In this document: piece after piece, positions 2,061 through 32,466 of the stretch
Numbering within the stretch: the stretch's first letter is position 1
Layout of the letters: each line of letters starts with the position of its first letter
NCBI GenBank assembly: GCA_002269645.1
Contig: NIVC01004628.1
Coordinates: 1-40,237 of the forward strand
Origin: Macrostomum lignano
Taxonomy: Eukaryota
DNA length: 40,237 nucleotides
Direction: 5' to 3'
The notes under the pieces: model-generated
Databases searched by the model: none
Told to the model about the DNA's origin: nothing
Seen by the model: the letters and a program-made list of their open reading frames with translations, nothing else
Program-made: the position numbers and the translations under genes

Positions 2061-2139
2061 TTTTCAAACGTAATAAGAAGCGTCATGCCAATCATAAAGC
2101 AGCCACTAGAAAGCTAAGGAAATGTTGCACTATATACTT

Positions 2140-3240: not shown

Positions 3241-3284
3241 ATTTTTTTATTAAAAGCTTTTATTAAAGGACTAAATAAAAACAC

Positions 3285-7379: not shown

Positions 7380-8975
7380 AAGGTCAAACATTATAGAGCC
7401 ACCATGTCGAACATATATGTGACTTCATGTCGAACATATATGTGACTCCATGTCGAACATTAAAGAGCCGTCATGTCAAACATTAAAGAGCCACCGTGTC
7501 TAACATTAAAGAGCCACCATGTCAAACAAAAAAGAGCCACCATGTCTAACATTAAAGAGCCACCATGTCGAACACTAAAGAGCCACCATGTCGAACATTA
7601 AAGAGCCATCATGTCAAACATTAAAGAGCCACGGTGTCTAAAATTAAAGAGCCACCATGTCAAACAAAAAAGGCCATCATGTCTAACATTAAAGAGCCAC
7701 CATGTCGAACATTAAAGAGCCACCATGTCGAACATTAAAGAGCCACCATGTCAAACATCAAAGAGCCACAATGTCAAACATTAAAGAGCCACAATGTCAA
7801 ACATTAAAGAGCCATCATGTCTAACATTAAAGAGCCAACATGTCAAACACTAAAGAGCCACCATGTCGTGTCTAACATTAAAGAGCCACCATGTCAAACA
7901 TTAGAGAGCCACCATGTCAAACAATAAAGAGCCACCATGTCGAACATACAAGAGCCACCATGTCAAACAAAAAAAAGCCACCATGTCGAACATTAAAGAG
8001 CCACCATGTCGAACATACAAGAGCCACCATGTCAAACATAAAAGAGCCACCACGTCAAACATAGAAGAGCCACCATGTCAAACATTAAAGAGCCACCTTG
8101 TCAAACATTAAAGAGCCACCATTTCAAACCTAAAAGAGCCACCTTATCAAACATCATAGAGCCACCATGTCGAACATTAAAGAGCCACCATGTAGAACAT
8201 AAAAGAGTCACCATGTAAAACATAAAAAAGCCACCATGTAAAACATAAAAGAGCCACCATGAAGAACTTTAAGAGCAACCATGTCGAACATTAAAGAGCC
8301 ACCATGTCGAACATTAAAAAGCCACCATGTCAAACATTAAAGAGCCACCATTTCAAATCTAAAAGAGCCACCATGTCGACCATTAAAGCCACCATGTCAA
8401 ACATAACAGAGCCACCATGTCAAACATAAAAGAGTCATCATGTCAAATATTAAAGAGCCACCTTGTCAAACATAAAAGAGCCACCATGTCAAACATATAT
8501 GTGACTCTATGTCAAACAGTAAAGAGCCACCATGTCAAACGTAAAAGAGCCACCATGTCCAACATAAAAGAACCACTATGTCGAACATAGAAGAGCCACC
8601 ATGTCGAACACTAAAGAGCCATAATGTCGAACTTTAAAGAGCCATCATGTCAAACATTAAAGAGCCACGGTGTCTAAAATTAAAGAGCCACCATGTCAAA
8701 CAAAAAACGCCATCATGTCTAACATTAAAGAGCCACCATGTCGAACATTAAAGAGACACCATGTCAGACATAAAAAACCCGAATCAAACATAAAAGAGCT
8801 ACCATGTAGAACATCAAAGAGCCACGATGTCAACATTAAAGAGCCACCATGTCAAACATTAGAGAGCCACCATGTCAAACAATAAAGAGCCACCATGTCG
8901 AACATACAAGAGCCACCATGTCAAACATAAAAGAGCCACCATGTCTAACATTAAAGAGCCACCATGTCGAACATA
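7380..8975. repeat. 23-bp minisatellite (same family as 1-2060)
   Basis: GTC(G/A)AACATTAAAGAGCCACCAT units. Confidence 0.95.
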
Positions 8976-8978
8976 AAA

Positions 8979-10400
8979 GATACACAATTTCAAACGTAAA
9001 AGTAAGCGTCATGCCAATTTTAAAGGAGTCACTACAGAGCTAAGGAAATTGTTGCACTAGCTACTTATTGTCTGGTGGATGCTTACTATTTGGGGATGCT
9101 TGCTATCTGGGGGATGCTTGCTATCTGGGGGATGCTTGCTATCTGGGGAAATATTAAAGAGCCACTATGTCGAACATTAAAGAGCCACCATGTCGAACAT
9201 AAAAGAGCCACCATGCCAAACATAAAAGAGCCACCATGTCGAACATTAAAGAGCCAGCATGCCAAACATAGAAGAGCCAGCATGCCAAACATAGAAGAGC
9301 CACCATGTCGAACATAAAAGAGCCACCATGCCAAACATAAAAGAGCCACCCTGTCGAACATAAAAGAGCCACCATGCCAAACGTAAAAGAGCCACCATGT
9401 AGAACATAAATGAGCCACCATGTCAAACATTAAAGATACACAATTTCAAATGTATAAGTAAGCGTCATGCCAATTTTAATGGAGCCACTATAGAGCTAAG
9501 GAAATTGTTGCACTAGCTACTTATTGTCTGGTGGATGCTTACTATTTGGGGATGCTTGCTATCTAGGAGTGGGGATGCTTGCTATCTGGGGGATGCTTGC
9601 TATCTGGGGGATGCTTGCTATCTGGGGGATGCTTGCTATCTGGGGAAATATTAAAGAGCCACTATGTCGAACATTAAAGAGCCACCATGTCGAACATTAA
9701 AGAGACACCATTTCAGACATAAAAAAACCCGAATCAAACATAAATTAGCTACCATGTAGAACATAAAAGAGCCACGATGTCAACATTAAAGAGCCACCAT
9801 GTCCAACATAAAAGAGCCACCATGTCAAACATTAAAGAGCCACCATGTCAAACATTAAAGAGCCACTATGTCAAACATTAAAGAGCCACCATGTCGAACA
9901 TTAAAGAGTCATCATGTCAAACATAAAAGATACACAATTTCAAACGTAAAAGTAAGCGTCATGCCAATTTTAAAGGAGCCACTATAGAGCTAAGGAAATT
10001 GTTGCACTAGCTACTTATTGTCTGGTGGATGCTTACTATTTGGGGATGCTTGCTATCTAGGAGTGGGGATGCTTGCTATCTGGGGGATGCTTGCTATCTG
10101 GGGAAATATTAAAGAGCCACTATGTCGAACATTAAAGAGCCACCATGTCGAACATAAAAGAGCCACCATGCCAAACATAAAAGAGCCACCATGTCGAACA
10201 TTAAAGAGCCACCATGCTAAACATTAAAGAGCCACCATGTGAAACATATACATGACTCCATGTCGAACATTAAAGAGCCACCATGTTAAACATAAAAGAG
10301 ACACCATTTCAAATGTAAAAAGCAGCTTCATGCGAAACATAAAGGGGCCACTATAAAGCGAAGGATATTATTGCACTAGCTACTTGTTGTCTTTTTGGAT
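8979..10400. repeat. Tandem duplication of a ~370-490 bp compound block
   Basis: Spacer GATACACAATTTCAAA...GCTAAGGAAATTGTTGCACTAGCTAC recurs at ~8979, ~9435, ~9929 and diverged at ~10299, each followed by GATGCTTGCT units; the first three then run into 23-bp units. Confidence 0.9.
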
Positions 10401-11616
10401 GCTTGCTATTTAAGGATAGATTACTGCTATCAGGGGGATGCTTGCTATTGGAAGGATGCTTGCTATCTGGGGGGGGGGATTCTTGCTATCTGGGGATGCT
10501 TGCATGCTGTCTGGGGATGCTTGATATTAGGGAGGCAAGAGGCTTGCTCTTGGGGGGGGTACTTGCTATCTTGGGGGGAGGGGTTGCCATCTGGATGATG
10601 CTTGCTATCTGGAAGATGCTTTTTGCTATTGTATTTGGGGGGAGCTTGCTATCTGGGGGATGCTTGCTATCTGGGGGGATGCTTGCTATGGGGGAGATGC
10701 TTGCATGCTGTCTGGGGATGCTTGCTGTCTTGGGATGTTTTCTTTTTAGAGGAAATGTCTGCTGTTTTTTCGTTGTCTATTTGTTACTTGTAAAGAACAA
10801 AGATTCTATCCAGATGTCCCCCATCGGGGGGCGAAGATTGCTAGTATCCACTATAAATACGAGTATTTGTTTATACCAAGATTTACTATCAATGCAAACT
10901 GACCGCACAGGCAGAAATCGTAAAACAATATTAACGGTATAGTCGCTATTTTAGTCAGCACAGCTTTATACCGACGCAAAAGTGTTAATTGTAAATTGGA
11001 AAAATAAAACTCGAGTGGGCTTACAGCAAGATGCCTCTGTTTTAGTCCAGAAGATCTGTACTGGTGGAGTTTCCTAGTCTAATTTACATTGCGGCCAGCA
11101 GTTCAAGCTCGGCAAGGATGGGGATCGAGGGGCAGCCGGGGGGGGGGGAAGGAAGTTTGGCAGACTCTACCGAGTACAATTGTACGAATTGGGATAGATG
11201 GAGCACGAGTACTTGAGAAAGAGACGATTGGGAAAGGAGGGCAGACAAGGCCACAGCCTATACTGTATGTGGCATGCAGTTCATCCGTGTACAAGCGTAG
11301 CCTAAAATGAATCTACATCCATTAAGTGCACACGCTCTGCTGCTTTGCCTCTAAAAGCAGATCAGGCATGGTACGAGTAACAGTACTGAAAAATAATATC
11401 TGATTCTGGTAGCTTGCACGGCATTTCCTGTCTTTTAGAATCGCACAGCACTGCACATACCGAATAGGACAGCAATTTAGAAAAAAAAATTACTATATTA
11501 CGCTCGCATAAACTATCAAGAAATGCCCGCTTCTAGAAGCAAAATAGGAACGAATTCGTCTCCCTCCAGCCGATTCTTCTATTCGAAGAATTGTCAGGTC
11601 GCCTCTGTTTTTCAAC

Positions 11617-11811
11617 ATGGCCATTTTAAAAGATTCGGTAAACTTAATTTTTGTCACGCTTTTTAGCATAGCAAATTTGACCAGTGGTCAAACAGTCAGT
11701 AGTGACAGCAGCGCAAACTCCTCGGCACTTTTAATCACCTGTTATAGCTGTCAGAATTGTCCAACTGTTAATCATAATTCGACACCACAGGCTACAGGAC
11801 GATACTGCGTT
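11617..11811 (+). CDS. Ly6/uPAR (three-finger, LU-domain) protein, exon 1
   Basis: ATG, hydrophobic signal peptide (LIFVTLFSIANLTSG), CYSCQNC motif, ends phase 0 at a GTAAGT donor (11812). Confidence 0.8.
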
Positions 11812-12014
11812 GTAAGTTTATTTGGAAAACTGCATGAGTTTAAAGAAGTTGAAACTAGTTTTTTATGTATTGTGTTGCTTCATTGGCTGAATAATAAATT
11901 ACATATAGGAATTGGTACAGGCTTTAATTTGAATGTCTTCTCGAGTTTGTGTCAAACAGAATAAATAACTCCTTTGTGTCGACGCCAATTGTGACGAATC
12001 TGAATTAGAAACCC

Positions 12015-12790
12015 AATATGACGTCTAAAACACCCAATGTGACGCTCTCAAGATCGACACCCAATGTAATGTCTCTCCAGTCACCCAATGTGACGTCTCT
12101 CTAGTCACCCAATGTGACATCTCTCAAGACACCCAATGTGACGTCTCTCAAGACACCCAATGTGACGTCTCTCCAGTCACCCAATATGACGTCTCTCCAG
12201 TCACCCAATGTAATGTCTCTCCAGTCACCCAATGTGACGTCTCTCTAGTCACCCAATGTGACATCTCTCAAGACACCCAATGTGACGTCTCTCAAGACAC
12301 CCAATGTGACGTCTCTCCAGTCACCCAATATGACGTCTCTCCAGTCACCCAATGTGACGTCTCTCTAGTCACCCAATGTGACATCTCTCAAGACACCCAA
12401 TGTGACGTCTCTCCAGTCACCCAATGTGACGTCTCTCAAGACACCCAATGTGACTACTCTCAAGACACCCAATATGACGTCTCTCCAGTCACCCAATGTG
12501 ACGTCTCTCAAGACACCCAATGTGACTACTCTCAAGACACCCAATATGACGTCTCTCCAGTCACCCAATGTGACGTCTCTCAAGACACCCAATATGACGT
12601 CTCTCCAGTCACCCAATGTGACGTCTCTCCAGTCACCCAATGTTACGTCTCTCAAGACACCCAATGTGACGTCTCTCAAGACACCCAATGTGACGTCTCT
12701 CAGACACCCTATGTGACGTCGCTCCAGTCATCTAATTGGACGTCTCTCTAATCACAGTGAGCCATCTCTCGAGTAAACCCAATGTAACGT
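12015..12790. repeat. Intronic 24-bp minisatellite CACCCAATGTGACGTCTCTC(AAGA/CAGT)
   Basis: About 30 units; variant order repeats with a 6-unit (144 bp) period in the 5' half. Confidence 0.95.
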
Positions 12791-12971
12791 CTCTTAAGGC
12801 ACCCATATCATGACTTTTAAGTCCCAACAGGTGTAAGGTATCCTACAGGTATCCTATAAGATGAATTCATTTATTTTAGATACATTTATGTCCATGTAGT
12901 AAGAAATGTACTCACTTATCCTACTTATGTACTTAAACCTACATGCAATTAAATTCTCAACACAAATCCAG

Positions 12972-14709: not shown

Positions 14710-15551
14710 TATAAGACTTAGAAATCTGAACGGAATTTAAGAGTTCGCTAGCAGAAAGCTAAAAACCAAAAATAGCAACAGCAGAAAGTGCGAGCAAGCG
14801 AAAAGGAGAATGATTAGACAAAATCCGCCCCCAGAGATCAACTATTCATTTCAGCGCAGGCCCGGTTCGGCATGACAGCAGCTGTGCCGACGTGGAGCTG
14901 CCTGACACCGGATCCGCAGAGGCGCTGACGTGGAACCGCCTGAGACCGGACCCGCAGCTGTGCTGACGTGGAGCTCCCGGAATCAACCCGGCCTACCCCG
15001 ACCTGCAGCTGCCTGCATCGACCCAACCCAGCAGAAACTGGAGCCGCCCGGACCCGATCGGGAACGAGATCGAGAGGAGGCCGAGTCCGCACAAGAAGGC
15101 GGGATCGATGAAAGAAAAGGGGTTGGCGTGCCTGCCAACCAACTAGTTTAATGACAATAACGGTACTAGACTCGAGGCTGCGACCTCACTCACCCCAAAT
15201 TCCCATGCGTACTGTTGCTATGGTATTTTCTTCCCCTCGGATCGAGGGTTTTAAAGACATTATATATATCGGAGCGGAGCGCGGAAAAAGAATCGCCGCG
15301 CGAGTCAGTTAGAGATTCTATTTGAATTCCGTTACGTTAAACACATTAGAAAACTCATAGTGTTTGTGTTATTTCTTGAGTAGAATCTAAGATAAGGATC
15401 CCGAGAGATCATCACAGCCAGCCAGTATACTGAGTGTCGATAGTCGTTAGGAGTTATAGCCTTCAAGACATCCAGACTGCAATAATCCGCTAGACCAATT
15501 ATACGAAAAATATAAGTAAAGACAAGAGACATCAAAACTTGAAGCGCTATA
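14710..15551 (+). repeat. 5' LTR (842 bp)
   Basis: Direct repeat of 26478-27320; begins TATAAG, ends GCGCTATA; TATATATA box at ~15261; U3 direct repeats containing TGACGT/CGACGT at ~14877-14978. Confidence 0.95.
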
Positions 15552-15553
15552 CG

Positions 15554-15566
15554 TGGTTCCCAGACC
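15554..15566 (+). promoter_or_regulatory. Primer binding site, probably tRNA-Glu
   Basis: TGGTTCCCAGACC 2 nt after the LTR; 12/13 match to the complement of the vertebrate tRNA-Glu(CTC) 3' end (...GGTCAGGGAACCA) as recalled. Confidence 0.7.
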
Positions 15567-16761
15567 TACGAGTCATCTATCGAGCAGTCTACACTTTTCA
15601 ACCTGACGACATCGACCAGTAATGGCTGAGTAATTTCCGACGGTGGAGGAAGGAACGCGGAAGGCCAGGATGAGTGCTGTCATACAATTGTTTCTCTACT
15701 AAGTAAACTATACATCGTGTCGTAAGAGGACATGTGCGTTTCTCATTGAAAAAGCTCAAAAAAATTCGATAAAATTCTAAAAACAAACAAAAAAGTAGAA
15801 TAGTTATGTACAAAGTTACGGTATGATTTTCCTTAGAAGAGAAATATTTAGCGGCTGGTGAAGCAAATCACCAAGGCCGCACATCAATAGCGAGGGGCTA
15901 CCAGGAAGTTGTTTTAATAGGACCATGGTCGAATTATCATGAAAGGTGTACTCATTTAAAGAATTCAGGCAGCGCTGACCAGCATTATCACATATTAAAG
16001 CTTATGCTCTAAAGGAGCGTTTGCAGGAGCCGGCCGACTCATCACAGGTAAAGGACCTGTCAAGTGAATTGCAGCATTAAAAGTACACCGTATAGGGCTT
16101 TTCATTGTTATAGCGCGCTTCAATAGGCTCAGTAGGATAGTAGACCTTCTGAGGAGAGTTATACTCTTGGCACTAAGGACTGCGCGGACACAGAGGGGGG
16201 AAGAACTCACTTAGGCACTATGCATTGCGTCTATCTGACTTAGCTCCCCAGCAAACGTGACAGCCCGCCCATAGCGCTGATGATCTACTACACAGCGTGG
16301 CAGGGTAAGTATTTGTGCCCCCAACCTAGGTAGCCAGTCCATGAGACAACCTCGAGGCATTTCTTAAGGCAGATTGAAATGCATAGCCCAACTAGCCAAT
16401 AAGGCGGAAAGCGGAAAAGCAAAATGCTTGGTCGCTAAGAGTGCATGTGTATAAAATGCTGCAACCATATTATTTAGCCTCGCGCATATCTACGACAAGC
16501 GAGACAAAAATGCACTCATTTATTTGCAAAAAGCAAGAAAATTTACATATTGACTGCACCACCTGGCCGGAAACGTATCCGACACCTCTACCCCTTTTCT
16601 CATATTTGAATTCCAATTAAAACTTTGTGAGATCTTAGATAGATCAGAGCACACACTGACAAACTACTTTGTTGAAGTCAAGCTGATTAAATACGCATCA
16701 TTTACATTCATATCATTTGCGGCCAACTCCGCAAAGAACTAATAGACCGGAATATCAGCAT

Positions 16762-19700
16762 ATGAATAACGGAGATCTAAACCAAGACATTCAAACAGGT
16801 ACTAACAGAACTCCAGAACCCGGAGACGCCGATCAGCAACAACTGTCACACGACCAGTTAGATCAGCCAGAAGACCACAACGACGAGTGGGAAGACAACA
16901 ACGAGCATTCATCAGACTCGGACAACGAGGACAACACAATGGAAGATCTCCAGAACCAAGTCCGAGAACTACAGCAGCGTCTCGCCATGGTACATGGCAG
17001 GGACCTACCAGCCATTGTCCAGGCTCTCAAGTTATCGGCAGGAGACTACGAGATGGGACAGCCATTTGTCAAATGGCTGACTGAATTCGAGCTCCAGACA
17101 GCGACATATGGTCTAACGGACGAAGAGAAGTGCCGACTACTACCACTTATGTTGCGCCCTAACGCACGTAATCAATACGCAGGACTCCCACAAGCCGTCC
17201 GAGAGGATTACGGACGGGTGCGAACGCAACTCCGAGAGCTGTATGACACTAGAGCGATGGACCGACCCACGGCAGTACTCCAACTTTCCATGAGGAGGAT
17301 GCATCCAGGAGAGGATGTTAACAAGTTCATCGCCGACATCACACAACTAGTCGAGAACTCAGTGTTCCAAGAACCAGCGCCGGAGGGTGAGAATGAGAAC
17401 GACAGAGGCGCAAGAATCAACCGCAACAAACGCATAGTCCAGGACCACATTATGCTGCACGTGCAACAGAATGCCACACCGGCATTGCGACTATATCTAG
17501 CCAGAGGACGTTACCAGACAGTCCCGGAGATGGTGCGCGAAGCACTTCAATGGCAAGCATTGCGAGAGTTGGAACAGGACTCCAACGACGTACGCAAGCT
17601 GACAGCCATGGTAGCACAGATGGAGACTACAATCAGGCAAGCGGACCGGCGCACCCAAGATCGAGCTCAACAGCCACAGAAGGAAACCGCAACCAAGTAC
17701 CCAGACGGCAATCCGAGGCTGACATGCCAACTCTGTGACAAGATAGGCCACACAGCCAACAAGTGCTACCAAAGGAACGGGAACCTCGGTAAGAATACCG
17801 GGGGCCAAGTGCAGTCACAGGGCAGACAAGATCGAGGTAACATTAAGTGCAACAAATGCGGAAAGAGAGGCCACTTTGCAAAGGAGTGCAGAGGCCAGCG
17901 ATATTGCAAGAACTGTAACATGCACAACCATTGGACAACGGAATGCGGCCGACAACGCCAGGGTGATCAAGGACGGCATCAACAGCAATGGCAGCAGCCA
18001 AAGCGGATCGCTGAAGTCACGGTCCAGGACCCCAGTCCGCAGCCAGCCCAACTGGCGAGTGAGTCTAGCCAGACAGCACATATCTTGGCAGTCAGCACGT
18101 CGGAAGAGACAACGCCGACAAGGACAAGAAGCGACGTCATACAAGCAAGACGACAGAACAGGAAGAACAAGACGGCGACAATCGCCCTAGTTCAGACCGC
18201 TCCACAGCTCGAAGGACGAAAGCGAGAGCACAGGGCTAGAAAGGCTAGTGATGGCTGGAAGGCACCAGCCGGACCGATATGCGCACTCCTGCTAAAAATA
18301 CTACTCTTCGCATTGCTCTGCACCACGGCGGAGACGATAAACCCAAGACACCAGAACTGGGTGGACACACCGATGTACTGTCCGGAGCCCTCCAGGCCAC
18401 AGATCTTCAAGCTGCCACCGGACATCGAGTGCAAGATGCCTAGCAGCATACAGCAGCACCGACAGCCGATCAACCTGACAATCTTTAGACCAAACCAGGT
18501 CACTCACCGATCAACACTCAAGATCTGTTACCGAGAAACGTATGTCTTCACCAGCGTAGCACTAAAAACGATTGCCGCTAAAGTGATAAGACCAGAAATG
18601 ACTGTTACGGTGCAGAAACATCTAGTTTCAGAGGAAGATTGTGAGTCCTGGGAGGAAGGTTACCGAACTCCAGATGGCATCCTTGAAGAAGATGGGAAAG
18701 CCCCGAACAAAGCTGAACGCTTTACTACTCACATCTGGACAACAGAGGAATTCGACCCAACGGCTAGTACCCAAACTAGATATACGAAATCCGCGTCCAC
18801 GCTGATAACGAAAATTCCGTTCTTCGTGGAGAATAAGAAAATGTCATCGCTATATATCCCACTAGGACATTGCAATTACACCATAGGAAAATGTCTTCAC
18901 GAGTCCACTCTACAGGCCGAGAAGGATGCACCGTTGGAGAGACAAGTACCCAACAAACTATGGGAAGCTCTGAGATACTACGACACACAATTCAAGGTCG
19001 CTGGAGAACGCCAGTACAGATATGCCTGGACACCCAGCGCCGCAATTGACTGCCCGTACCAGGAAGACAGGCGAATTGAAGGAACCATACACACAGGATG
19101 GTTCATGTCCAAGGACGCTACCTACGCTTTGACTTTTAAACACCCACCACACTCAATGGAGCTGAAATGCGGAGGAACGACAACTAAACTATTCAGGTCA
19201 GAACAAGGAAAGTTGGTTAAACTAGAAGGATCCGAAGCAGAATTCTTATCGATAGTACAAGGTAATTTTAATAACTCGAGCACAGCAAAGAGGGCAAAGA
19301 GAGACGTGGTATCACAGGAAACTCTAGCAGTGAAATTACAGAGTGTTGAACTTACAATGGAAAATAGAATTGGTGATCTGACTCGTCATGTAATCCTTCA
19401 GCAATGCCGACTCCAACAGACCATTTTTAGATACATTAAAGACTTTATAAGGATGCAACCAACACTAGCGGTGAGGACACTGTTCAAAGACGAGCACCTC
19501 AAGGCCAGAACGATAGCTCAGCATGTTGTCATCTTCAAATGCATCCCAGTGACCGACTTCGAATTCCATCAACCATACTGGAATCAAAGCCGATGTTTCT
19601 CCAAACCTCCGCTGAAGTACAAAGTAGCGGAGACCAACCGTACAGGATTTTTGGACGTAAGAACCATGGAAATTGAGACGGAACACCCCACTTTTCAGGA

Positions 19701-20343
19701 TTGTTCGAATCGAACTGGATACCTGTTACCCAAAGAGGACAAAGTGTACAAGGTCGACTCAAATTTCACCAGCTTCGAACTTATACAGGTAAAGAAATTG
19801 AAGAACGAAGATTGGGGAATAGAGGCTATGAAATTACCTAATATCAAACGGATTATCTTTACACCAGAAACAGATATTAAAATAGAAGAAATCCGAAGGC
19901 CAATTACAGTGCACGATCTGTACACGCAGATGAAGGACCAGAGAGAATTTCTGAGAACGGTATTTAAACTACCAAAGCAGAAGACTTCACAGACGCTCGA
20001 CCTCCCACCATTGGAAGCAAACATAGCCCTCAAAACTTATGACTTCGCATCTTGGATGCCGTGGATAGGCATAAAACTCAATATTTTCAACATAGCCGTT
20101 GGAGCTGCCGCTCTCTGGGTATACTTCTGCATCATACTCAAAACCATAATAGCTTGTCACAGGCTCTATCGGAAAAAGTACGAGCGACCAGGAATTCGGG
20201 CAATTCAAAGACGGATAAAGGCGACGCGAGAACAACACGAATTGTTAGTACAGCCAAGCACGGACACTAACTACAGACACACGGGCCCACGCCGCCCAGC
20301 ACAGAGGCACCAGCCACAAATAAGGAACAGCATCAACCGATGA
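16762..20343 (+). CDS. gag-env: Gag-Env fusion polyprotein (1193 aa from first ATG): capsid, three CCHC knuckles, internal signal peptide, class III gB-like glycoprotein, TM, tail
   Basis: Gypsy-type capsid region; CQLCDKIGHTANKC, CNKCGKRGHFAKEC, CKNCNMHNHWTTEC; hydrophobic ICALLLKILLFALLCTTA (18277-18330); 12 ectodomain Cys; at least 7 N-X-S/T sequons; furin site RAKR (19291-19302); TM 20083-20139. No stop or frameshift between gag and env. The track extends the ORF to a TTG at 16717. Confidence 0.92.
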   Translation: MNNGDLNQDIQTGTNRTPEPGDADQQQLSHDQLDQPEDHNDEWEDNNEHSSDSDNEDNTMEDLQNQVRELQQRLAMVHGRDLPAIVQALKLSAGDYEMGQPFVKWLTEFELQTATYGLTDEEKCRLLPLMLRPNARNQYAGLPQAVREDYGRVRTQLRELYDTRAMDRPTAVLQLSMRRMHPGEDVNKFIADITQLVENSVFQEPAPEGENENDRGARINRNKRIVQDHIMLHVQQNATPALRLYLARGRYQTVPEMVREALQWQALRELEQDSNDVRKLTAMVAQMETTIRQADRRTQDRAQQPQKETATKYPDGNPRLTCQLCDKIGHTANKCYQRNGNLGKNTGGQVQSQGRQDRGNIKCNKCGKRGHFAKECRGQRYCKNCNMHNHWTTECGRQRQGDQGRHQQQWQQPKRIAEVTVQDPSPQPAQLASESSQTAHILAVSTSEETTPTRTRSDVIQARRQNRKNKTATIALVQTAPQLEGRKREHRARKASDGWKAPAGPICALLLKILLFALLCTTAETINPRHQNWVDTPMYCPEPSRPQIFKLPPDIECKMPSSIQQHRQPINLTIFRPNQVTHRSTLKICYRETYVFTSVALKTIAAKVIRPEMTVTVQKHLVSEEDCESWEEGYRTPDGILEEDGKAPNKAERFTTHIWTTEEFDPTASTQTRYTKSASTLITKIPFFVENKKMSSLYIPLGHCNYTIGKCLHESTLQAEKDAPLERQVPNKLWEALRYYDTQFKVAGERQYRYAWTPSAAIDCPYQEDRRIEGTIHTGWFMSKDATYALTFKHPPHSMELKCGGTTTKLFRSEQGKLVKLEGSEAEFLSIVQGNFNNSSTAKRAKRDVVSQETLAVKLQSVELTMENRIGDLTRHVILQQCRLQQTIFRYIKDFIRMQPTLAVRTLFKDEHLKARTIAQHVVIFKCIPVTDFEFHQPYWNQSRCFSKPPLKYKVAETNRTGFLDVRTMEIETEHPTFQDCSNRTGYLLPKEDKVYKVDSNFTSFELIQVKKLKNEDWGIEAMKLPNIKRIIFTPETDIKIEEIRRPITVHDLYTQMKDQREFLRTVFKLPKQKTSQTLDLPPLEANIALKTYDFASWMPWIGIKLNIFNIAVGAAALWVYFCIILKTIIACHRLYRKKYERPGIRAIQRRIKATREQHELLVQPSTDTNYRHTGPRRPAQRHQPQIRNSINR

Positions 20344-23300
20344 TTCCGTCTGCTCCACTGGCTTCATCAATTTATCCGACGATCAGCTCATGGCCACCGC
20401 CGATAGTGGCAGCAATTACGAACTGCCAGAAGTACACGGTGACGCGACTGAAGATAGGCACGCGAGTCTGCAGAGCACTGATAGACAGCGGAGCAGAGAG
20501 GTCGCTGATAGACGAAGCGACGGCGCGCCGATACAGTGACAGCTTCGAGAAGCCGACGACAGAACTGCAAGGAGTACACGGAGGAAAACTCACGCAATCC
20601 GGGATGATCACGTTACCAGTCGAAGCAGGAGACGCAATCGCCAACGTTAAGTTTCACGTCATTCCTAATCTGAGTTCTGGGAGATATCATGCACTCTTGG
20701 GAATTGATTACTTAAGTCAGTTGCAGAAGGGTATGTCTATTAATTACCAACAGCAACAGATGCAGTTAAATGGCAGATCGTATGAAATCATGACAGTCGC
20801 CGCCCAAGAAGCCACAAATAAGATCAGACTAGTCTCCGTGGTAAACCTGAATCCATGGGAAACAGCTCAAATTACAGCCAGAACCGACTCAAAGGAGGAA
20901 CTGCCTGACACGGTACTTTTCGAGCCAGATAGGCGCATCACCGAGAAGAAGGCGATAGGAATGACTCAGGAGATAGTACATCCGGACGAGAAGGGAGAAG
21001 TACAGGTTCTTATATCCAACGAATCAGCCAGACCGATCACTCTGTACCCGGATACAGCCATAGGTTCATATGAGACAGAGATAGAGACATATGAAATAGC
21101 CGCGAATCAGGAACAGGCACCGGCAATGTCAGAGACAGAATTTAGAGATGCGATTAATCTGCAGGGAGCCGAGATAACAGAGGAGCAGAAAGAACAACTA
21201 AGAGAAATCCTCTGGGAGAACAAGGAAGCATTTTGTCTCTCAGATGACGAGATAGGATTTACAGAAGTAGCGAAACACGAACTCCACATAAAACCGAATG
21301 TGGAGGTGAAGCTGAACAAGAGATATCCTATTCCACACCAGCTGACAGGAGAACTGAAGAAGGTGATAGACAGAATGGAGATGCAAGGGATTCTCATGAA
21401 AGCACCGACACCGTATATTTCACCAATTCTCCTAGTCAAGAAAAAATCGGAGTCACCGGAAGCTAAACCAGTGTATCGCCTGTGTGTGGACTTCAGGGAC
21501 TTAAACCGATTGTTGGTCCCCGAGAGGCAGTGTATGCCCAGGATTCCAGATCTGCTGGCCAAACTCAAAGGATCAAAGTACTTCACGACTCTAGACATGG
21601 CCCAGGCATTCTTTCAAGTGGCCCTACACGAGGACAGTAGAAAATACTGCGGGATTTCTACACCGGACGGAGAAACTCTAGTCTTCTTAAGGGCACCGAT
21701 GGGATTACAGTCGAGCCCAGCCGCCCTGTCTAGAGCGGCTAGCATCATCCTCAAAGACATCGAAAGAGTCTCGACATATGTGGACGATTTGCTAGTATTC
21801 ACGGAAAATTTCGAACACCACCTAAAGACACTCAAAAGTACTCTGGAAGCCTTGAAAAAGCACGGATTAAAGCTGAAACTCCAGAAATGTCGTTTTGCGC
21901 AACCCAGCATTACCTTCCTGGGACACAAGATTGACCAGAACGGCATCCAGATAGATCGTACCTTAGTGGATAAAGTACAAAAGGTATCCAAGCCGGACAA
22001 TGTGACTCAGTTAAGGGCATTCCTCGGACTATGCAATTTTTTTAGGAAGCATGTCCCACAATACGCCAAGAAAGTACAACCGCTAACGGATATGCTCAAA
22101 GGGGCACCGACCTCAAAAGGACAAGCAACGAAGACCAACCTAAAGTGGACCGAGGAAGCGAACTACACTTTCGAGGCTATGAAGAAATGGATAGCCGAGG
22201 ACCTCAGGTTAGCACACCCGGATTTCAGTAAGCAGTTCATCGTTTCGAGTGACGCCTCAACTAAGGGAATAGGAGCGATGCTTTCGCAGAAAGATGAGAT
22301 GGGACGGGAGAGACCGATAGCATTCACGAGTAGACAACTCAGAGACGCCGAAACGAGATACGGAATCACTCATCTCGAACTTTTAGCAGTCTACCATGCA
22401 TTCAGAAACTTTGAACAGTTCTTATACGCCGCTCCCATACCTACACTACTGAGAGTAGATCATGCTCCACTCAGAGGCTTACTCACAGGCAGAATACTGC
22501 AGAACAACCAAATTTTGCGATGGTTACTATACTTACAGCAGTTTCAAATACAGATCGAATATGTACCAGGAGCATCAGTCACACATGCGGTACCGGACGC
22601 ACTCTCAAGGTTATACGACGAGAAACCAATGGACCAAGTCAATTATGTCACAATATCACATCCAATCCCACACTTACAAGCACTCAAGGACGCCCAGGCG
22701 GAAGACCCGTTCTGCCAACAAATCCGAGCGATGTGGAACGGAGAATCTGCAGTGGAATCACTGGCCCCGAAGTACAGACGCCACATCGATAGACACATGG
22801 CGGACTACGCGGAGATTGGAGGAGTTTTACACAGAACAGCGGATCAGACACAACAGATCATCCTACCATTTCAGTATCGTGAGACCATTTGCCATTCACT
22901 ACACGCATTGCCATTAGCGGCACATTTGGGATTTGAGAAAACCCTAGAGAGAATCCGCAGACACTACTTCTGGATTACCATGATATCCGACATCCGAGGA
23001 TTCTGCAATAACTGCATAGAGTGCGCCAGGAACAAATCAGGAAAAACCCATAAGGGACTGATTCAGTTTTCGGAGATCCCAATGCGACCAATGGACAAAT
23101 TGTCAGTCGACATAGTGGGTCCAATGGTGCCCACTAAAGTGAGAAATGAAACAGTAACACACATTCTTACAATTCTTTGTTGCTTTTCGAAATTCGCATT
23201 CGCCATTCCGATCCCAGATCTTACAGCTGAAACGACGGCAGAGACACTATTCACAGTGTTCTGTACTTTTGGGATCCCGATTGAGATGTCCACGGACAAT

Positions 23301-24098
23301 GGAAAGAACTTCACAGCGACTCTACTAGCCGAAGCCTTAGAGATATTGGGGATCAAACATATTTTGACATCTCCATATAATCCTCGAGCGAATCATGTGG
23401 AACGGTTACACTCCACACTGCACAACATGTTACGCCACTACACAGCCGAGAATCCAGACCAGTGGCATAAGTACCTGCAGGCGACAATGTTTGCATATAA
23501 CACGGCAAAGCAAGCATCATCGACCTACTCGCCATTCGAGTTAGTTTTCGCCCGACGACCTCTGATGCCTACTCAACTTACTACTCAGTTGAACTTGGTA
23601 AAGTACATGGATGAACCATCATTTGCAGCTAGAATGAAAGAAGCTGTAACACTAGCCAGAGAGATAGCGAGGCACCACCTACAGGTCGCACAAGAAAAGA
23701 ATACCGGAAAAGCAAATGAAAACCGCAAACCGACTACATTGGAAGTAGGGAGTAGAGTTATGTTGCAAATTCCTATGAGACAGGGAAAGCACCAAGCTAA
23801 ATTTACAGGACCCTATGAGATTGTGAAGAGGAGCAGTCAGACTTCAGTCACAATCCGGAAAATCGACGATCCAAATCAGGAGTCCTTTCAAGTGCACACC
23901 GACAGGCTGAAACCAATGGCCACATCAACACCACATGTGATGCTTCCTGACCTCAGACCGAGCGACCCACAGCGCCACCAGCGACAGCCAAGGCAGCGAT
24001 TCACAAAGGAAGTGAGCGTGCAGGCAGAAGAGCTGGACGCGCAGGCCGACACAGCTCGGAAGAAATACAATCTGAGGAGCAAAGTGAAACTTCCTTGA
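20340..24098 (+). CDS. pol: Pol polyprotein: protease, RT, RNase H, integrase (1252 aa)
   Basis: LIDSGAERSLI (PR); YRLCVDFRDLN, LDMAQAF, YVDD (RT); SDAS..ELLAV..VDH (RH); H-H-C-C zinc finger, VDIVGP, TDNG, VERL and FTGPY (IN). Confidence 0.98.
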   Translation: MIPSAPLASSIYPTISSWPPPIVAAITNCQKYTVTRLKIGTRVCRALIDSGAERSLIDEATARRYSDSFEKPTTELQGVHGGKLTQSGMITLPVEAGDAIANVKFHVIPNLSSGRYHALLGIDYLSQLQKGMSINYQQQQMQLNGRSYEIMTVAAQEATNKIRLVSVVNLNPWETAQITARTDSKEELPDTVLFEPDRRITEKKAIGMTQEIVHPDEKGEVQVLISNESARPITLYPDTAIGSYETEIETYEIAANQEQAPAMSETEFRDAINLQGAEITEEQKEQLREILWENKEAFCLSDDEIGFTEVAKHELHIKPNVEVKLNKRYPIPHQLTGELKKVIDRMEMQGILMKAPTPYISPILLVKKKSESPEAKPVYRLCVDFRDLNRLLVPERQCMPRIPDLLAKLKGSKYFTTLDMAQAFFQVALHEDSRKYCGISTPDGETLVFLRAPMGLQSSPAALSRAASIILKDIERVSTYVDDLLVFTENFEHHLKTLKSTLEALKKHGLKLKLQKCRFAQPSITFLGHKIDQNGIQIDRTLVDKVQKVSKPDNVTQLRAFLGLCNFFRKHVPQYAKKVQPLTDMLKGAPTSKGQATKTNLKWTEEANYTFEAMKKWIAEDLRLAHPDFSKQFIVSSDASTKGIGAMLSQKDEMGRERPIAFTSRQLRDAETRYGITHLELLAVYHAFRNFEQFLYAAPIPTLLRVDHAPLRGLLTGRILQNNQILRWLLYLQQFQIQIEYVPGASVTHAVPDALSRLYDEKPMDQVNYVTISHPIPHLQALKDAQAEDPFCQQIRAMWNGESAVESLAPKYRRHIDRHMADYAEIGGVLHRTADQTQQIILPFQYRETICHSLHALPLAAHLGFEKTLERIRRHYFWITMISDIRGFCNNCIECARNKSGKTHKGLIQFSEIPMRPMDKLSVDIVGPMVPTKVRNETVTHILTILCCFSKFAFAIPIPDLTAETTAETLFTVFCTFGIPIEMSTDNGKNFTATLLAEALEILGIKHILTSPYNPRANHVERLHSTLHNMLRHYTAENPDQWHKYLQATMFAYNTAKQASSTYSPFELVFARRPLMPTQLTTQLNLVKYMDEPSFAARMKEAVTLAREIARHHLQVAQEKNTGKANENRKPTTLEVGSRVMLQIPMRQGKHQAKFTGPYEIVKRSSQTSVTIRKIDDPNQESFQVHTDRLKPMATSTPHVMLPDLRPSDPQRHQRQPRQRFTKEVSVQAEELDAQADTARKKYNLRSKVKLP

Positions 24099-24267
24099 CA
24101 TTTGAAGTCAAGGGAGGGAGGAAGTAGACGGACAATTTTCATTTTAAACAATATTCATTCCTCTGTTGGTGTGCGCTCTGATATTTAGAATTATATATTT
24201 TGCACTACTCGTAAGCAGCCACTATTTAATCACTCACAAATATTCAACCCACCCTTCGGATGATCAG

Positions 24268-25029
24268 ATGTATTCGACGGAGCTAGACACAGTGGATGAT
24301 TGCACCATCGATGAGCCGCTCACGACCTACACATTAGTCAAGCCACTGTTTACATCGGCAGAACCAAGCAAGGCAGTCGGGAAGGAGATGAACATTAGGA
24401 ACAGCGCCGCCACTGAACAGCAACGGCGACATCTCCAAGTCCAATGGGCGATCAGAAGATCGAGAAACGGACTGCCGCAATGCCCAGCAACACTGAGGGA
24501 GAGCTACAAACGGGGAGAAAAAGACCTTTCATTCAATGAGTTCTACAACCTTATGGACAAACAGCCCATCCAAAGCAAGCCCAATCGGCATGGTGAGATG
24601 AAACTATTCAATATTCACCTGGACATGCTGGATGCGCCACGAATTCCAGCTAATGTAGTGACGCACTTGACAACGAAGCGCATCCTGGCTGACGACAATA
24701 ACCCAATATGGCTCCTCTCAGACTACAACATTCTACGTAACCGCACAACAATCTTCTTTCACTATGGGGAACAAGACGCGTTCACCTGCGTCATAATCAA
24801 GGTTCTTTGCCGTACTCTAGCCGTCAATCTGATTCACCCTTGGGGCCCGCAACCCAATGCGATATGCACCACGTTATTTAATTACTTGTCCCACGTGCTG
24901 GCCTATCATGGAATACAGAGTAATCGCCACGAAATGACAAAACTAGTAGTCCGAACGTATTCACCGGCGCTGCTCCAGTGGCCACAACTAAAGACGGCAT
25001 TGGAAGCCTCGCTAGCGCCTACTCTTTAG
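24268..25029 (+). CDS. ORF3, accessory protein of unknown function (253 aa from ATG), possibly degenerate RNase H-like fold
   Basis: Long non-repetitive ORF inside the element; ATG directly preceded by a candidate acceptor (...CCCTTCGGATGATCAG). Track start at TTG 24166. Confidence 0.7.
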   Translation: MYSTELDTVDDCTIDEPLTTYTLVKPLFTSAEPSKAVGKEMNIRNSAATEQQRRHLQVQWAIRRSRNGLPQCPATLRESYKRGEKDLSFNEFYNLMDKQPIQSKPNRHGEMKLFNIHLDMLDAPRIPANVVTHLTTKRILADDNNPIWLLSDYNILRNRTTIFFHYGEQDAFTCVIIKVLCRTLAVNLIHPWGPQPNAICTTLFNYLSHVLAYHGIQSNRHEMTKLVVRTYSPALLQWPQLKTALEASLAPTL

Positions 25030-25093
25030 TAGGGATTTAGGGACGCGAAAGTGTAAGGGCATAAGGAGACACGAGAGCAGAGACACTGACACA

Positions 25094-25459
25094 ATGGTAG
25101 GACAGATGGGTCGTCACGACCGGAAGTCTTATCCTTGTGGCACTCTCACTCGAGGTGCAATCCTAAGGCAAGAACCAGTCTCACGGAAAGAACTTTGGGG
25201 AGCGTCTCGCTACCTGAAGATTCTGACCGGTGAACTAGGGGAAGCCAGCCCCGTCAATCAAAGCGAACCCAAACTTAGAATAACCAAGTACAAAGGCAAG
25301 GCACTACCAAATTCCATGATCCAGCACTCATTGTTTTATTGTACAAAAATAGTAACCAGCACCAATACTCACTCCTACACGTTAAGCACTGCACAACAGT
25401 CAATAGCAAAAAATTCAACAAGGGGGATAAGGATAGACAAGAAAAGCACACGATTATGA
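25094..25459 (+). CDS. Possible ORF4 (121 aa, basic, no recognised motif)
   Basis: ATG-initiated, 366 bp; no other support. Confidence 0.3.
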   Translation: MVGQMGRHDRKSYPCGTLTRGAILRQEPVSRKELWGASRYLKILTGELGEASPVNQSEPKLRITKYKGKALPNSMIQHSLFYCTKIVTSTNTHSYTLSTAQQSIAKNSTRGIRIDKKSTRL

Positions 25460-25477
25460 AGTAGCATAGGAAAATTG

Positions 25478-25735
25478 TCAAATTGTCACGACGGTGGACT
25501 CGGCTAGGGGGCTCCGACGCCGCCGGCAGCAGACGAGCAGCAGAACGAGGCCGAGGATCACGAAGACCAGGCCTCCGGCCCCCAGACCGCCAGAGAGTCC
25601 ACGAACGGTCAGGAGGCCGCTTTCAAGGGACGTCGTCCGAGCTATTTCCACGGCTAGGTGGGCCTCTAGGCGGCTGACTCGGGCCTCCAGATGAGACAGG
25701 AGCTCAATGAGCTGGGCAACCTCGTAGCGAGACAT
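25478..25735 (-). CDS. Antisense small single-pass membrane protein (85 aa)
   Basis: True ATG, high GC at third codon positions, heptad-like N-terminus, TM GLVFVILGLVLLLV, then CC-RRRR. Confidence 0.65.
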   Translation of the reverse strand: MSRYEVAQLIELLSHLEARVSRLEAHLAVEIARTTSLESGLLTVRGLSGGLGAGGLVFVILGLVLLLVCCRRRRSPLAESTVVTI

Positions 25736-26464
25736 GAATCGAAATATGCGAGTGACAAGAATGAAGCTAACGATTCGTAATAACGAAGACTAAAAGCCGA
25801 AGATAGTCGCTTTAGAAGGAGCAGGGAACCCCAGTGAGGAATTGATATAACACCGCCTCAGAAGGACGAAGAGAAAGCGAAAATTACAGCCACCCCCTCC
25901 GCCGCGGGGAGCGGACCTCAATGTACATGGCGAGAGGGACAGTAAAACCACCCGTGTCGCCCCAAACCCCCCACGAGACTAAAAATAGCAACAAAAGGCC
26001 CCACAGAAGTCACAAGTCGAGATCATGTTAGTTCAACCACGGCCCCAACAGAAGTAAGATACTGGCGACAGCGGATAACAAACACACCACACCCGAGAAT
26101 CGAGATTGATACAAGATCAGGGGAAACAGCTAAAATCAGAATACACACAATATTATAACCACATGCTATAATGATATAACCCACGCGATGCTATAATCCA
26201 AACTATGTTATCGTCCTGCGAAGTCCAGAAATGTTCAAACACTAATTAACTCAGGACTAAAAACCACGCATATCCACAACTACTTATTCACTATTTACAA
26301 CAATGCTCAAACAAATGAATTATACACACACCCCTTTAGCCTCTTAATCTAATAGTTTCAGATTTCAACGTCTTATATGTTCACATACCTACTGGCAGTA
26401 GACACATTGGCAATTCGAGTAAGACAATAGATTCCATTTCCCTTGACCAGTCAAGGATTTCTTC

Positions 26465-26474
26465 AAAAGGGGGA
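26465..26474 (+). promoter_or_regulatory. Polypurine tract
   Basis: AAAAGGGGGA 3 nt upstream of the 3' LTR. Confidence 0.85.
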
Positions 26475-26477
26475 TGA

Positions 26478-27320
26478 TATAAGACTTAGAAATCTGAACG
26501 GAATTTAAGAGTTCGCTAGCAGAAAGCTAAAAACCAAAAATAGCAACAGCAGAAAGTGCGAGCAAGCGAAAAGGAGAATGATTAGACAAAATCCGCCCCC
26601 AGAGATCAACTATTCATTTCAGCGCAGGCCCGGTTCGGCATGACAGCAGCTGTGCCGACGTGGAGCTGCCTGACACCGGATCCGCAGAGGCGCTGACGTG
26701 GAACCGCCTGAGACCGGACCCGCAGCTGTGCTGACGTGGAGCTCCCGGAATCAACCCGGCCTACCCCGACCTGCAGCTGCCTGCATCGACCCAACCCAGC
26801 AGAAACTGGAGCCGCCCGGACCCGATCGGGAACGAGATCGAGAGGAGGCCGAGTCCGCACAAGAAGGCGGGATCGATGAAAGAAAAGGGGTTGGCGTGCC
26901 TGCCAACCAACTAGTTTAATGACAATAACGGTACTAGACTCGAGGCTGCGACCTCACTCACCCCAAATTCCCATGCGTACTGTTGCTATGGTATTTTCTT
27001 CCCCTCGGATCGAGGGTTTTAAAGACATTATATATATCGGAGCGGAGCGCGGAAAAAGAATCGCCGCGCGAGTCAGTTAGAGATTCTATTTGAATTCCGT
27101 TACGTTAAACACATTAGAAAACTCATAGTGTTTGTGTTATTTCTTGAGTAGAATCTAAGATAAGGATCCCGAGAGATCATCACAGCCAGCCAGTATACTG
27201 AGTGTCGATAGTCGTTAGGGAGTTATAGCCTTCAAGACATCTAGACTGCAATAATCCGCTAGACCAATTATACGAAAAATATAAGTAAAGACAAGAACCA
27301 TCAAAACTTGAAGCGCTATA
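26478..27320 (+). repeat. 3' LTR (843 bp)
   Basis: Differs from the 5' LTR by one G insertion and three substitutions in my manual comparison. Confidence 0.95.
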
Positions 27321-28949: not shown

Positions 28950-29644
28950 ATGCACAGCTGGTCGGTCAAGATGATTCGCAAAGATACCAAAATGCAAGTA
29001 AGCAACGACAGAATCTACATGGTTGGCAAGTTACGATACTTCTTACTGGTAAATTGCAGCAAGAAAGCCTATTGGAAGCTAAGCATCGCAGCGGGTCGTT
29101 TTGTACAAGCGAATTACAAGGCTTTACTTGCACTGCTTTCGTCGAAATCTGCTGGATCAAGAGGTCGAGATGATGCCACGGTTGACGGCTCGGCTCAGTT
29201 GCCTTTCTACATAACAGTCAATCGCACGGAAAACAAGAAAACTCGGATGAGCGTATCAGCCACCGTTGATGAGCGCAATTTGCTGTATTTATCCTCGGCG
29301 ACAGTCGATGACAAGCTAAGAATGCGCTTGAAAAACGGTCGCAGAGACTATCGAGTCTGCGTTCAAGGCTCCATCGGCCTTGTTGAAACTGAATCCAACC
29401 TTTCAATTGACACCGTTTCGTGCACCAATGCGACAGCTGACGCTCGCACCTGCGAGGCCAATCTCGCGAGTGTTATGCACACCGACTCAGCTGACCTACT
29501 GACGGCCGCTCCGACGCCGTCTGCGCCGCGTCGACGTCTGTTGTCTGATAACTACGATGCCGAGACAATGGGCCGCCTGTTTCGAGAACGATACACCACA
29601 CTGCGCGGGGAGTACTTTATTTTCTATTCTCACGGTGAATTAAT
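28950..29644 (+). CDS. TTLL10: TTLL10-like gene, first visible coding exon (5' boundary uncertain)
   Basis: Open frame ending at phase-2 donor AT|GTGAGC (29645); spliced junction YFIFYSHGELI|CRKMLNAMGF aligns without gaps to recalled TTLL10 FYIGGSNGASIISNYCKSKGW. Confidence 0.55.
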
Positions 29645-29750
29645 GTGAGCATGCTGTGCTGTATTTTTACTATAGTATACGGTCAAACCGCAGGTAAAAT
29701 TTCATTTGAAATCAATCGTACGAGAAAACTTTTAACTCCCTTAGTCATAT

Positions 29751-31047
29751 CTCCTCTCCCTCCTCTTTCTCCTCTCCTTCCTCTCCCTCCTCTCCCTCCT
29801 CTCCCTCCTCTCCTTCCTCTCCTTCCTCTCCTTCCTCTCCCTCCTCTCCCTTCTCTCCTTCCTCTTTCTCCTCTTTCTCCTATTCCTCCTCTCCTTCCTC
29901 TCCTTCCTCTCCTTCCTCTCCTTCCTCTCCTTCCTCTCCCTCCTCTCCCTCCTCTCCTTCCTCTCCCTCCTCTCCTTCCTCTCCTTCCTCTCCTTCCTCT
30001 CCTTCCTCTCCTTCCTCTCCTTCCTCTCCTTCCTCTCACTCCTCTCCTTCCTCTCCTTCCTCTTCCTCCTCTCCCTCCTCTTCCTCCTCTCCTTCCTCTC
30101 CCTCCTCTTCCTCCTCTCTTTCCTCTCCTTCCTCTGCCTCCTCTCCTTCCTCTCCTTCCTCTCCTTCCTCTCCTCCTCTCCCTCCTCTCCTTCCTCTCCT
30201 TCCTCTCCCTCCTCTCCCTCCTCTCCTTCCTCTCCTTCCTCTCCCTCCTCTCCCTCCTCTCCTTCCTCTCCTTCCTCTCCCTCCTCTTCCTCCTCTCCTT
30301 CCTCTGCCTCCTCTCCTTCCTCTCCTTCCTCTCCTTCCTCTCCTTCCTCTCCTTCCTCTCCCTCCTCTCCTTCCTCTCCTTCCTCTCCTTCCTCTCCTTC
30401 CTCTCCCTCCTCTCCTTCCTCTCCTTCCTCTCCCTCCTCTCCCTCCTCTTCCTCCTCTCCCTCCTCTCCCTCCTCTCCCTCCTCTTCCTCCTCTCCTCCT
30501 CTCCTTCCTCTCCTTCCTCTCCTTCCTCTCCTTCCTCTCCTTCCTCTCCTTCCTCTCCTTCCTCTCCTTCCTCTCCTTCCTCTCCCTCCTCTCCTTCCTC
30601 TCCTTCCTCTCCCTCCTCTCCCTCCTCTTTCTCCTCTCCTTCCTCTCCCTCCTCTCCCTCCTCTCCCTCCTCTCCTTCCTCTCCTTCCTCTCCTTCCTCT
30701 CCCTCCTCTCCCTTCTCTCCTTCCTCTTTCTCCTCTTTCTCCTATTCCTCCTCTCCTTCCTCTCCTTCCTCTCCCTCCTCTCCCTCCTCTCCTTCCTCTC
30801 CCTCCTCTCCTTCCTCTCCTTCCTCTCCTTCCTCTCCTTCCTCTCCTTCCTCTCCTTCCTCTCCTTCCTCTCACTCCTCTCCTTCCTCTCCTTCCTCTCC
30901 CTCCTCTCCTTCCTCTCCTTCCTCTCCTTCCTCTGCTTCCTCTCCTTCTTCTCACTCCTCTTCCTCCTCTCCCTCCTCTCCCTCCTCTCCCTCCTCTCCC
31001 TCCTCTCCCTCCTCTCCTTCCTCTTTCTCCTCCCCTCCTCTTCTTTC
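29751..31047. repeat. 1.3-kb almost pure polypyrimidine/polypurine tract, (CCTCTCCTT)n-type 9-mer, intronic
   Basis: Plus strand nearly all C/T with only isolated A or G interruptions. Confidence 0.97.
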
Positions 31048-31093
31048 AGGAAGAAAGAGTTAAGGAAGATTGCCTGACCCCCTACACACCCAG

Positions 31094-31233
31094 CTGTAGG
31101 AAGATGTTAAACGCAATGGGGTTCAATGAGCGCCAGCCAGAGGCCGACACGAACGAATTCAGACCCGTGGATAAAATGGCTCTTCTCTGGTGCAACGGAA
31201 CCAACTCAGGAGCCAAGCGGAAGAGTGGCCGGG
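31094..31233 (+). CDS. TTLL10: TTLL10-like exon
   Basis: Acceptor CACCCAG, encodes CRKMLNAMGF...ALLWCNG..., donor G|GTAAGA; phases 2 and 1 match the neighbouring exons. Confidence 0.7.
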
Positions 31234-31514: not shown

Positions 31515-32466
31515 ATCAAGGACCATAATAGTATAACAGGAGGTAAAACTCTAAGGTCGTGTGATTTTTTGGAGGTCAATTTCCTGAAAAATACACTGCG
31601 GAGATAGGAGAAAACTTGGGACAAAATCAATGATTGCATTTGACCTGGGGCAATGAAGATTACCATTCTTTCAATTTAGCATTCACTGCATGTTACTCGG
31701 TTGTATTTTACAACATATGGTTGTGTAGTGAAAGTTTAACTTTCATATTGTTTTCTCGTCGTCTATCCTAGCCTAGCCTAATTCCTAGAACTGTCGAAAA
31801 GCTCCTAAGAGTACCTGCATGCAAAATTTTTATAACACATGACTTTATTCAGGAAGAAACAAAACGCGTTCAGCTAATGTCATGCACTTGTGAGCACTTA
31901 CAACTTTGGGCTTACTAAAGAGAAAGAAGAGAAAAAGATCAAAATGACACATTATACAACGATATTTTTTATTACACCTGCCCCAATTGCGCCAGATGTG
32001 CAACCGACAGCTCAGCCGCAGCTATTGCGCGGCGCATCTGAAAGCTGCGTACGGCTGTTCAGTCCAAGGACTGTGGGGTCGCCACACACAGCCTCAAATA
32101 CTCCAGCTAATGCTGGTACCCATTTTACAGCTGGGTGAACTGAAGCAATGCAGAGTAAAGTGTCTTGCTCAAAGACACAAATTGTTCTAGTGGGATCGGG
32201 AATCGAACCCCCGACTTCCAAGTCGTGAGTCCGACGCTCTGACCACTAGACTACAACTCCCTATTTCTAGCAAGATATTTGCGAGCCCCCAACATGCTTT
32301 GCATGCTAAATTAAAAGACTGCTAATCTTCACTGCCCCAGATCGAATGCAATCATTGATTTCGTTATGAAAAAATATTCCTTCCTATTTCTACAGTGTAT
32401 TTTTTCCCGGAAAAATTTACACGATCCTTGAGTTTCACGTCCTGTTATACTACAGTGGTCCTTGAT
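31515..32466. mobile_element. MITE-like element with ~145-bp imperfect terminal inverted repeats
   Basis: 31515-31660 (ATCAAGGACCA..TAGTATAACAGGA...AATCAATGATTGCATTTGACCTGGGGCAATGAAGA) is the reverse complement of ~32327-32466. Confidence 0.65.
31950..32261 (-). mobile_element. tRNA-derived CORE-type SINE
   Basis: Minus strand: tRNA-like head (A box TAGTCTAGTGG, B box GGTTCGATTCC), then CTTTGAGCAAGACACTTTACTCTGCATTGCTTCAGTTCACCCAGCTGTAAAATGGGTAC, resembling the MIR CORE, then an AT-rich tail. Confidence 0.75.

Follow-up and report, generated by a model that had tools for sequence, protein, structure and literature searches.

Positions 14710-27320 of the window, i.e., the whole stretch of 40,237 nucleotides analysed here (Macrostomum lignano contig NIVC01004628.1), form one long terminal repeat (LTR) element whose design is a single Gag-Env-Pol open reading frame (ORF), encoding a polyprotein of ~2,450 amino acids (aa) in the order Gag-signal-Env-transmembrane anchor (TM)-protease (PR)-reverse transcriptase (RT)-RNase H-integrase (IN); behind pol, a further gene, ORF3, is reached by splicing and its product likely adopts a SUMO-protease-like fold. 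The LTRs agree at 839 of 843 positions (blastn), as the ~99.5% initially reported for them. Together with the LTRs, a tRNA primer-binding site (PBS), a polypurine tract and a pol order PR-RT-RNase H-IN, with Pfam matches to RT_RNaseH, Integrase_H2C2, rve and an aspartyl protease, are the marks of Ty3/gypsy, and the Pao-type Peptidase_A17 is absent from the Pfam matches of the window proteins. The element very probably belongs to the known GAG-ENV-POL kind of Ty3/gypsy (Metaviridae) and was inserted recently, its genomic RNA encoding one polyprotein.

The continuous gag-env-pro-pol ORF is present in relatives and not in the window copy. A preliminary description of this DNA had pol in another frame, which is correct for the window (20271-24098) and does not extend to its sister copies. 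The frameshift in the window's env tail is missing from both of them, L009 (99.9% identical) and L010 (95%), the former being in frame at the env/pol junction and broken elsewhere, and the contigs of four out of four sequencing runs, from four studies, differ there from the window sequence, at full depth. Since the sister copies are in frame and the run contigs differ, a pol frame of its own belongs to the window copy alone (assembly error or mutation) and is not element design. An env query gave 66 matches in the genome, 13 of them in stop-free frames of 2,370-2,538 aa. Among the best 20 of the 66, on which the counts of env-bearing loci rest, env runs into the protease in one frame in 13 of the 16 loci having env and pol; the independent copies called for by the preliminary description were found, with the gag-env-pol order in all 14 fetched gag-bearing loci, in eight of which the CCHC knuckles and the signal share one frame. 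Gag through integrase is unbroken in three of these 14, one without a Gag start in that frame. The gag/env junction is spanned by contigs of all four runs without a listed indel, and a misassembly at this point is not supported. Some observations weigh against the single frame: three of the 16 loci have a break separating TM from protease, two (L024 and L025) near the same codon just past TM; six of the 14 gag-bearing loci have one between the knuckles and Env; the window's own family yielded only three env-bearing copies; and the run data consist of assembled contigs that can only be guessed to be RNA, none of the element-bearing runs being recorded as such.

The ORF at 16762-20343 encodes 1193 aa without internal stop, and the three CCHC knuckles, signal, glycoprotein, TM and tail follow each other as in the preliminary description, with the signal at exactly the coordinates given there. 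For the capsid, no Pfam family matched the window protein at E<=0.1; it is presumed from its position and from Ty3_capsid and Retrotrans_gag matches in long homologues. The signal is predicted to be cut after Ala523. Downstream of it occur eight N-glycosylation sequons and a match to PF24664 (Monjiviricetes_fusion; aa 858-999, E 2e-8), the best viral fold match of Env is Nyavirus, and a class III ectodomain of the gB type known from herpes simplex virus (HSV) lies between signal and TM. Three families, with env identities as low as 26% (window family vs. family 3, whose RTs share 38%), all retain the signal stretch, the furin-like site and TM, and two family 3 copies compared with each other indicate purifying selection on env (non-synonymous rate dN 0.032, synonymous rate dS 0.321), all of which bears out the earlier proposal of a functional capsid-signal-glycoprotein polyprotein instead of a decayed one. 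Word-index protein searches with the longer forms of env gave no match, nor did the search of viral contigs, and sequence searches of the PDB returned nothing useful.

Features of the element in the window (TM, transmembrane anchor; PBS, primer-binding site)
Feature	Position	Strand	Evidence and remarks
5' LTR	14710..15551	+	842 bp; termini TATA...TATA; blastn vs. 3' LTR
PBS, tRNA-Glu	15554..15566	+	12/13 bases match 3' end of host tRNA-Glu
Splice donor, subgenomic RNA	15619..15624	+	Joint 15618->24268, GT..AG, runs X2 and X4
Gag, with a presumed capsid, three CCHC knuckles (aa 322, 363, 382) and a low-complexity linker	16762..18276	+	Motifs, Pfam zf-CCHC; for the capsid, position and homologues
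Internal signal sequence, aa 506-523	18277..18330	+	Kyte-Doolittle 19-mer up to 2.2; matching stretch in families 2 and 3 and the deleted family
Class III fusogen ectodomain (gB/nyamivirus G like)	18331..20082	+	Furin-like RAKR at ~19291-19302 (aa 844-847)
Env TM, ~aa 1108-1131	20083..20154	+	Hydropathy; kept in families 2 and 3
Cytoplasmic tail/linker to protease	20155..20438	+	Contains frameshift specific to window copy
Pol frame of window: protease, RT, RNase H, integrase	20271..24098	+	Pfam RVP, RVT_1, RT_RNaseH, Integrase_H2C2, rve
ORF3, 253 aa	24268..25029	+	First codon abuts splice acceptor; likely SENP/Ulp1-like fold, aa 106-253; catalytic positions replaced
Polypurine tract	26465..26474	+	Sequence; before 3' LTR
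3' LTR	26478..27320	+	843 bp; blastn vs. 5' LTR

Searching 1.84 billion representatives with a profile recovered 282 env homologues. Among the 61 listed ones of at least 900 aa (three added cluster members excluded), a CCHC motif lies upstream of env in 42, a protease or RT motif downstream in 34 and both in 26, while an RT motif upstream of env was found in none; one belongs to Bel/Pao and has env at its end. The named homologues belong to M. lignano (the best, E 4e-103), Globodera, Caenorhabditis tropicalis and Meloidogyne, and single-ORF homologues occur in Globodera and C. tropicalis. An RT tree of 22 rows, built from env-linked homologues plus one nested element (midpoint root, no outgroup), places the window element with families 2 and 3 and the Macrostomum protein P0002 (support 95/94), outside a clade with the Globodera and C. 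tropicalis proteins (99/99); its nearest named relative is a flatworm protein. A metagenome scan gave one locus, broken and uninformative. Apart from these, three long homologues (P0015, P0062, P0071) each show two aspartyl-protease-like motifs after Env, and RT relatives whose open frames measure 2,859-2,866 aa (G000:C247, C270, C1672, C4280) are probably another single-ORF family resembling P0002.

The gag-env-pol order itself, which the preliminary description took to be new, is already published: GAG-ENV-POL 'ancient errantiviruses' with an HSV/gB-type ENV, not monophyletic, are reported from Platyhelminthes, Bryozoa and Nematoda (Chary and Hayashi, eLife 2026; PMC13524379; this and the other papers cited by PMC number are used as far as the sections covered). 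Like the window element, they combine a pol of Ty3/gypsy type with LTRs, a tRNA PBS and a class III envelope whose gene sits between gag and pol, and the 12-mer PBS in all eight fetched family 3 loci is that listed there for Platyhelminthes_Rhabditophora_Mlig_errantivirus_2. Four env peptides of the window family and its PBS were not found in seven supplements of that paper, a weak negative, as the env table holds gapped part-alignments and eight of nine flatworm rows carry no PBS. Its main text describes three ORFs, with no mention in the sections covered of a fused or single ORF, splicing, frameshifting or an accessory ORF, nor does the preprint have a polyprotein in those sections; the nematode elements are credited there to Sacco et al. 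(2022). Our literature search for the layout, which did not extend to subscription journals, Repbase and GyDB, returned this paper alone, and the same search, including PMC5408684 and PMC12801592, found no Ulp1/SENP gene in an LTR element; the window family and its accessory gene with the putative SENP fold appear to be undescribed so far. The element differs from nematode ones in having an RT outside the clade with the nematode proteins and a flatworm protein as its nearest named relative. This applies to NERV, the nematode endogenous retroviruses of Sacco et al. 2022, in which gag-env-pro-pol reportedly form a continuous ORF, the glycoprotein is nyamivirus-like and an extra 3' ORF is present.

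Canonical errantiviruses make Env from a spliced RNA. In the present element the splice leads to ORF3, which was overlooked, like its spliced RNA, in the preliminary description and uses its own ATG; a second GT lies 11 bases past the donor in use, family 2 has a donor-like GT in the equivalent position, and the element leader folded no better than shuffled sequences (z 1.31). Three structure searches and language-model features agree on the CE protease clan (Peptidase C48) for ORF3, on a low-confidence model, and a SENP/Ulp1-like fold is on this ground likely. Several points weigh against it: the model is weak (mean pLDDT, predicted local distance difference test, 47), as is the Atlas score on the tool's own scale, with a second Atlas query blank; Pfam gave no sequence profile match to SENPs, and ORF3 is not among the genome's 24 PF02902 matches; comparison with the host SENP exon reached an hhalign probability of 0.5, and global alignments with SENPs gave z of 0.62, -0.71, and -0.09. 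As for the RNA, the splice joint was not in X13 and its short side in X2 has only 30 letters. The His-Asp-Cys triad, in the HW, DS and QxNxxDCG motifs of the host SENP exon, is not present in ORF3, whose catalytic positions hold Ala171 and His190, with no Cys at the last helix; that these positions were assigned through topology and a non-significant alignment has to be added to the points against. ORF3 and its L030 counterpart differ by 11 synonymous and 14 non-synonymous codons, and word-index protein searches with ORF3 gave no match. Tentatively, the modelled fold would suit a role as binder or as decoy, directed at SUMO or at some other ubiquitin-like tag, that would not cut and would ease host control.

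It may quite well be, on the other hand, that ORF3 is an accessory protein unrelated to SUMO, e.g., a Rev-like exporter of unspliced RNA like CERV of Cer1, the fold match reflecting an old scaffold or a modelling artefact. The low model confidence, the lack of sequence support and the missing catalytic residues speak for it, as do the same location and spliced expression in Cer1, where CERV (517 aa; H, M and G domains) shares exons with Gag and acts in RNA export, with no mention of SUMO in the sections covered, while ORF3 has its own ATG (PMC10309623). The convergence of the three structure searches and the language-model features on one protease clan speaks against it, as does the cousin family, in which RING-like ORFs, likewise parts of the ubiquitin system, occupy this slot. 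A CERV-like export role is nearly as likely as tag binding. Ulp1/SENP-type folds also occur in Ginger1 and Mutator (PMC2836005) and in NeSL and Utopia (PMC4640811), where they are recognisable by sequence and part of the transposase or RT protein of DNA or non-LTR elements, whereas in the present LTR element ORF3 forms a spliced gene by itself, detected by fold only and without the triad. A broader and equally speculative reading is that the spliced 'env slot' was freed for accessory genes against the host ubiquitin-like system, here a dead SUMO-protease mimic shielding or sequestering SUMOylated silencing factors and in a cousin lineage RING proteins, with Pol packaged via the Env tail. SUMO has a role in transposon silencing. 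If the fold is right, the spliced gene would offer a direct handle on whether LTR elements counter SUMO-dependent silencing; if the broader reading holds as well, ORF3 would be an anti-silencing module akin to the accessory genes of complex retroviruses.

The RING-like ORFs of family 3 lie behind pol and start with Met-Gly (L027:9072-9737, + strand; L028:311-742, - strand), with 150 genome matches, often in tandem; they are possibly myristoylated E3-like accessory proteins, the Met-Gly start being what we take to be a myristoylation motif. A divergent ORF3 homologue (38%; L034, G000:C832:18500-19420) has an open frame of 248 aa, and its upstream 7.9 kb show similarity to neither gag nor pol; it is either another element type or a host-side copy. 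Three relatives (G000:C208, C2433, C2003) share RNase H-integrase pieces, ORF3 (94-95%) and the 3' region, with a different LTR, which suggests exchange of a 3' module; C208, considered as an env-less sister, was rejected, being a 5'-truncated piece, and no env-less sister was demonstrated.

Flaviviruses and alphaviruses encode polyproteins of the capsid-signal-glycoprotein type, threaded through the membrane by an internal signal and cut by host signalase; with their unrelated class II glycoproteins and RNA replicases, the likeness to the window element is an analogy only. Along such lines, Gag would be synthesised in the cytosol, the internal signal would thread Env co-translationally into the endoplasmic reticulum (ER), and host signal peptidase, predicted from the sequence to release Env, would free Gag with a membrane stub. 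Furin would prime Env, TM would halt the transfer, and Pol would be back in the cytosol, attached to the Env tail. Because Pol would stay there until the element protease releases it, it would be packaged with Env, entering particles linked to Env and not to Gag. The spliced RNA would yield ORF3, an accessory protein without the canonical catalytic triad. Such a polyprotein, crossing the ER membrane twice with Pol left on the Env tail, would follow a packaging logic unlike that of Gag-Pol, which the sections covered of PMC13524379 do not treat. Both Pol packaging and SUMO silencing are within reach, because RNA interference and transgenics exist in macrostomid flatworms (PMC12801592).

As the polyprotein continues into pol, Gag, Env and Pol would be made 1:1:1, barring an unseen isoform; the 1:1 Gag:Env stoichiometry proposed earlier is thereby kept as equal synthesis and has to be extended to Pol. 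Capsids usually require surplus Gag, and there is some chance that the one ORF has an unequal output, through minor splicing, early termination or selective decay, giving surplus Gag or, for transposition within the cell, a Gag-Pol devoid of env. The element does splice, its second GT site could serve such isoforms, and A-rich heptamers occur in the family 3 linker between Gag and Env; conversely, no conserved frameshift signal was found in families 1 and 2, and single-ORF gag-pol elements function with equal synthesis. No gag-to-pol joint omitting env is listed in three RNA-like runs, whose contigs are unable to prove absence.

Env probably serves cell-to-cell spread. The opposite view, an Env no longer fusogenic that merely anchors assembly at the membrane, draws on the statement that the transmission of most such elements is unknown (PMC13524379) and is improbable in the face of a complete ectodomain with invariant cysteines, the furin-like site and a dN/dS near 0.1. 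Slightly more improbable still is an active ORF3 protease with a rearranged site: His190 is kept in six of six aligned homologues and Cys174 in five of six, but Cys174 sits mid-strand in the model, whereas CE-clan enzymes carry Cys at the start of the last helix, and aa 201-253 contain no Cys.

Programmed frameshifting from a Gag-Env ORF into a second pol frame, as the two overlapping frames of the window and the like breaks just past TM in two of eight family 3 loci might suggest, is very unlikely given the in-frame sister copies and 13 of 16 loci, the departing run contigs and the lack, in the window and family 2, of any slippery heptamer on the way from TM to protease. A misassembly or nested insertion as the source of the gag-env-pol order, to which the private break and the missing target-site duplication of the window copy could point, is refuted for the family, as all fetched gag-bearing loci, independent run contigs and 26 of the 61 long homologues listed show the same order.

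As for the insertion itself, the window copy has no target-site duplication, in contrast to the 5-bp duplications at all four single-LTR loci fetched (L035-L038; two with common flanks), which hints at recombination or a flank misjoin. The LTRs of these loci end in TATA...TATA, as those of the window do (14710-14713, 27317-27320), and not in TG...CA. The family 2 PBS fits tRNA-Glu at 13 of 13 bases.

Deleted forms, with half of env joined to the integrase end, were found at four loci (L017:2878-4593, L018-L020); they represent a further env family (35% identity) in which the signal and the N-terminal half of env are in frame with the integrase C-terminus, and neither gag nor RT was seen in the fetched stretch. 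An env-less gypsy element is nested behind a decayed env-bearing copy (L016:7121-9899). Elsewhere in the window, 33298-34260 is an exon of a host gene in the tubulin-tyrosine-ligase family (PF03133, E 7e-35), minisatellite arrays with units of 9, 18, 23, and 24 bp lie in 1-12800, 29625-31100 and 39200-40237, and two inverted-repeat pairs (31515-32466, 38246-39149) resemble small DNA transposons.
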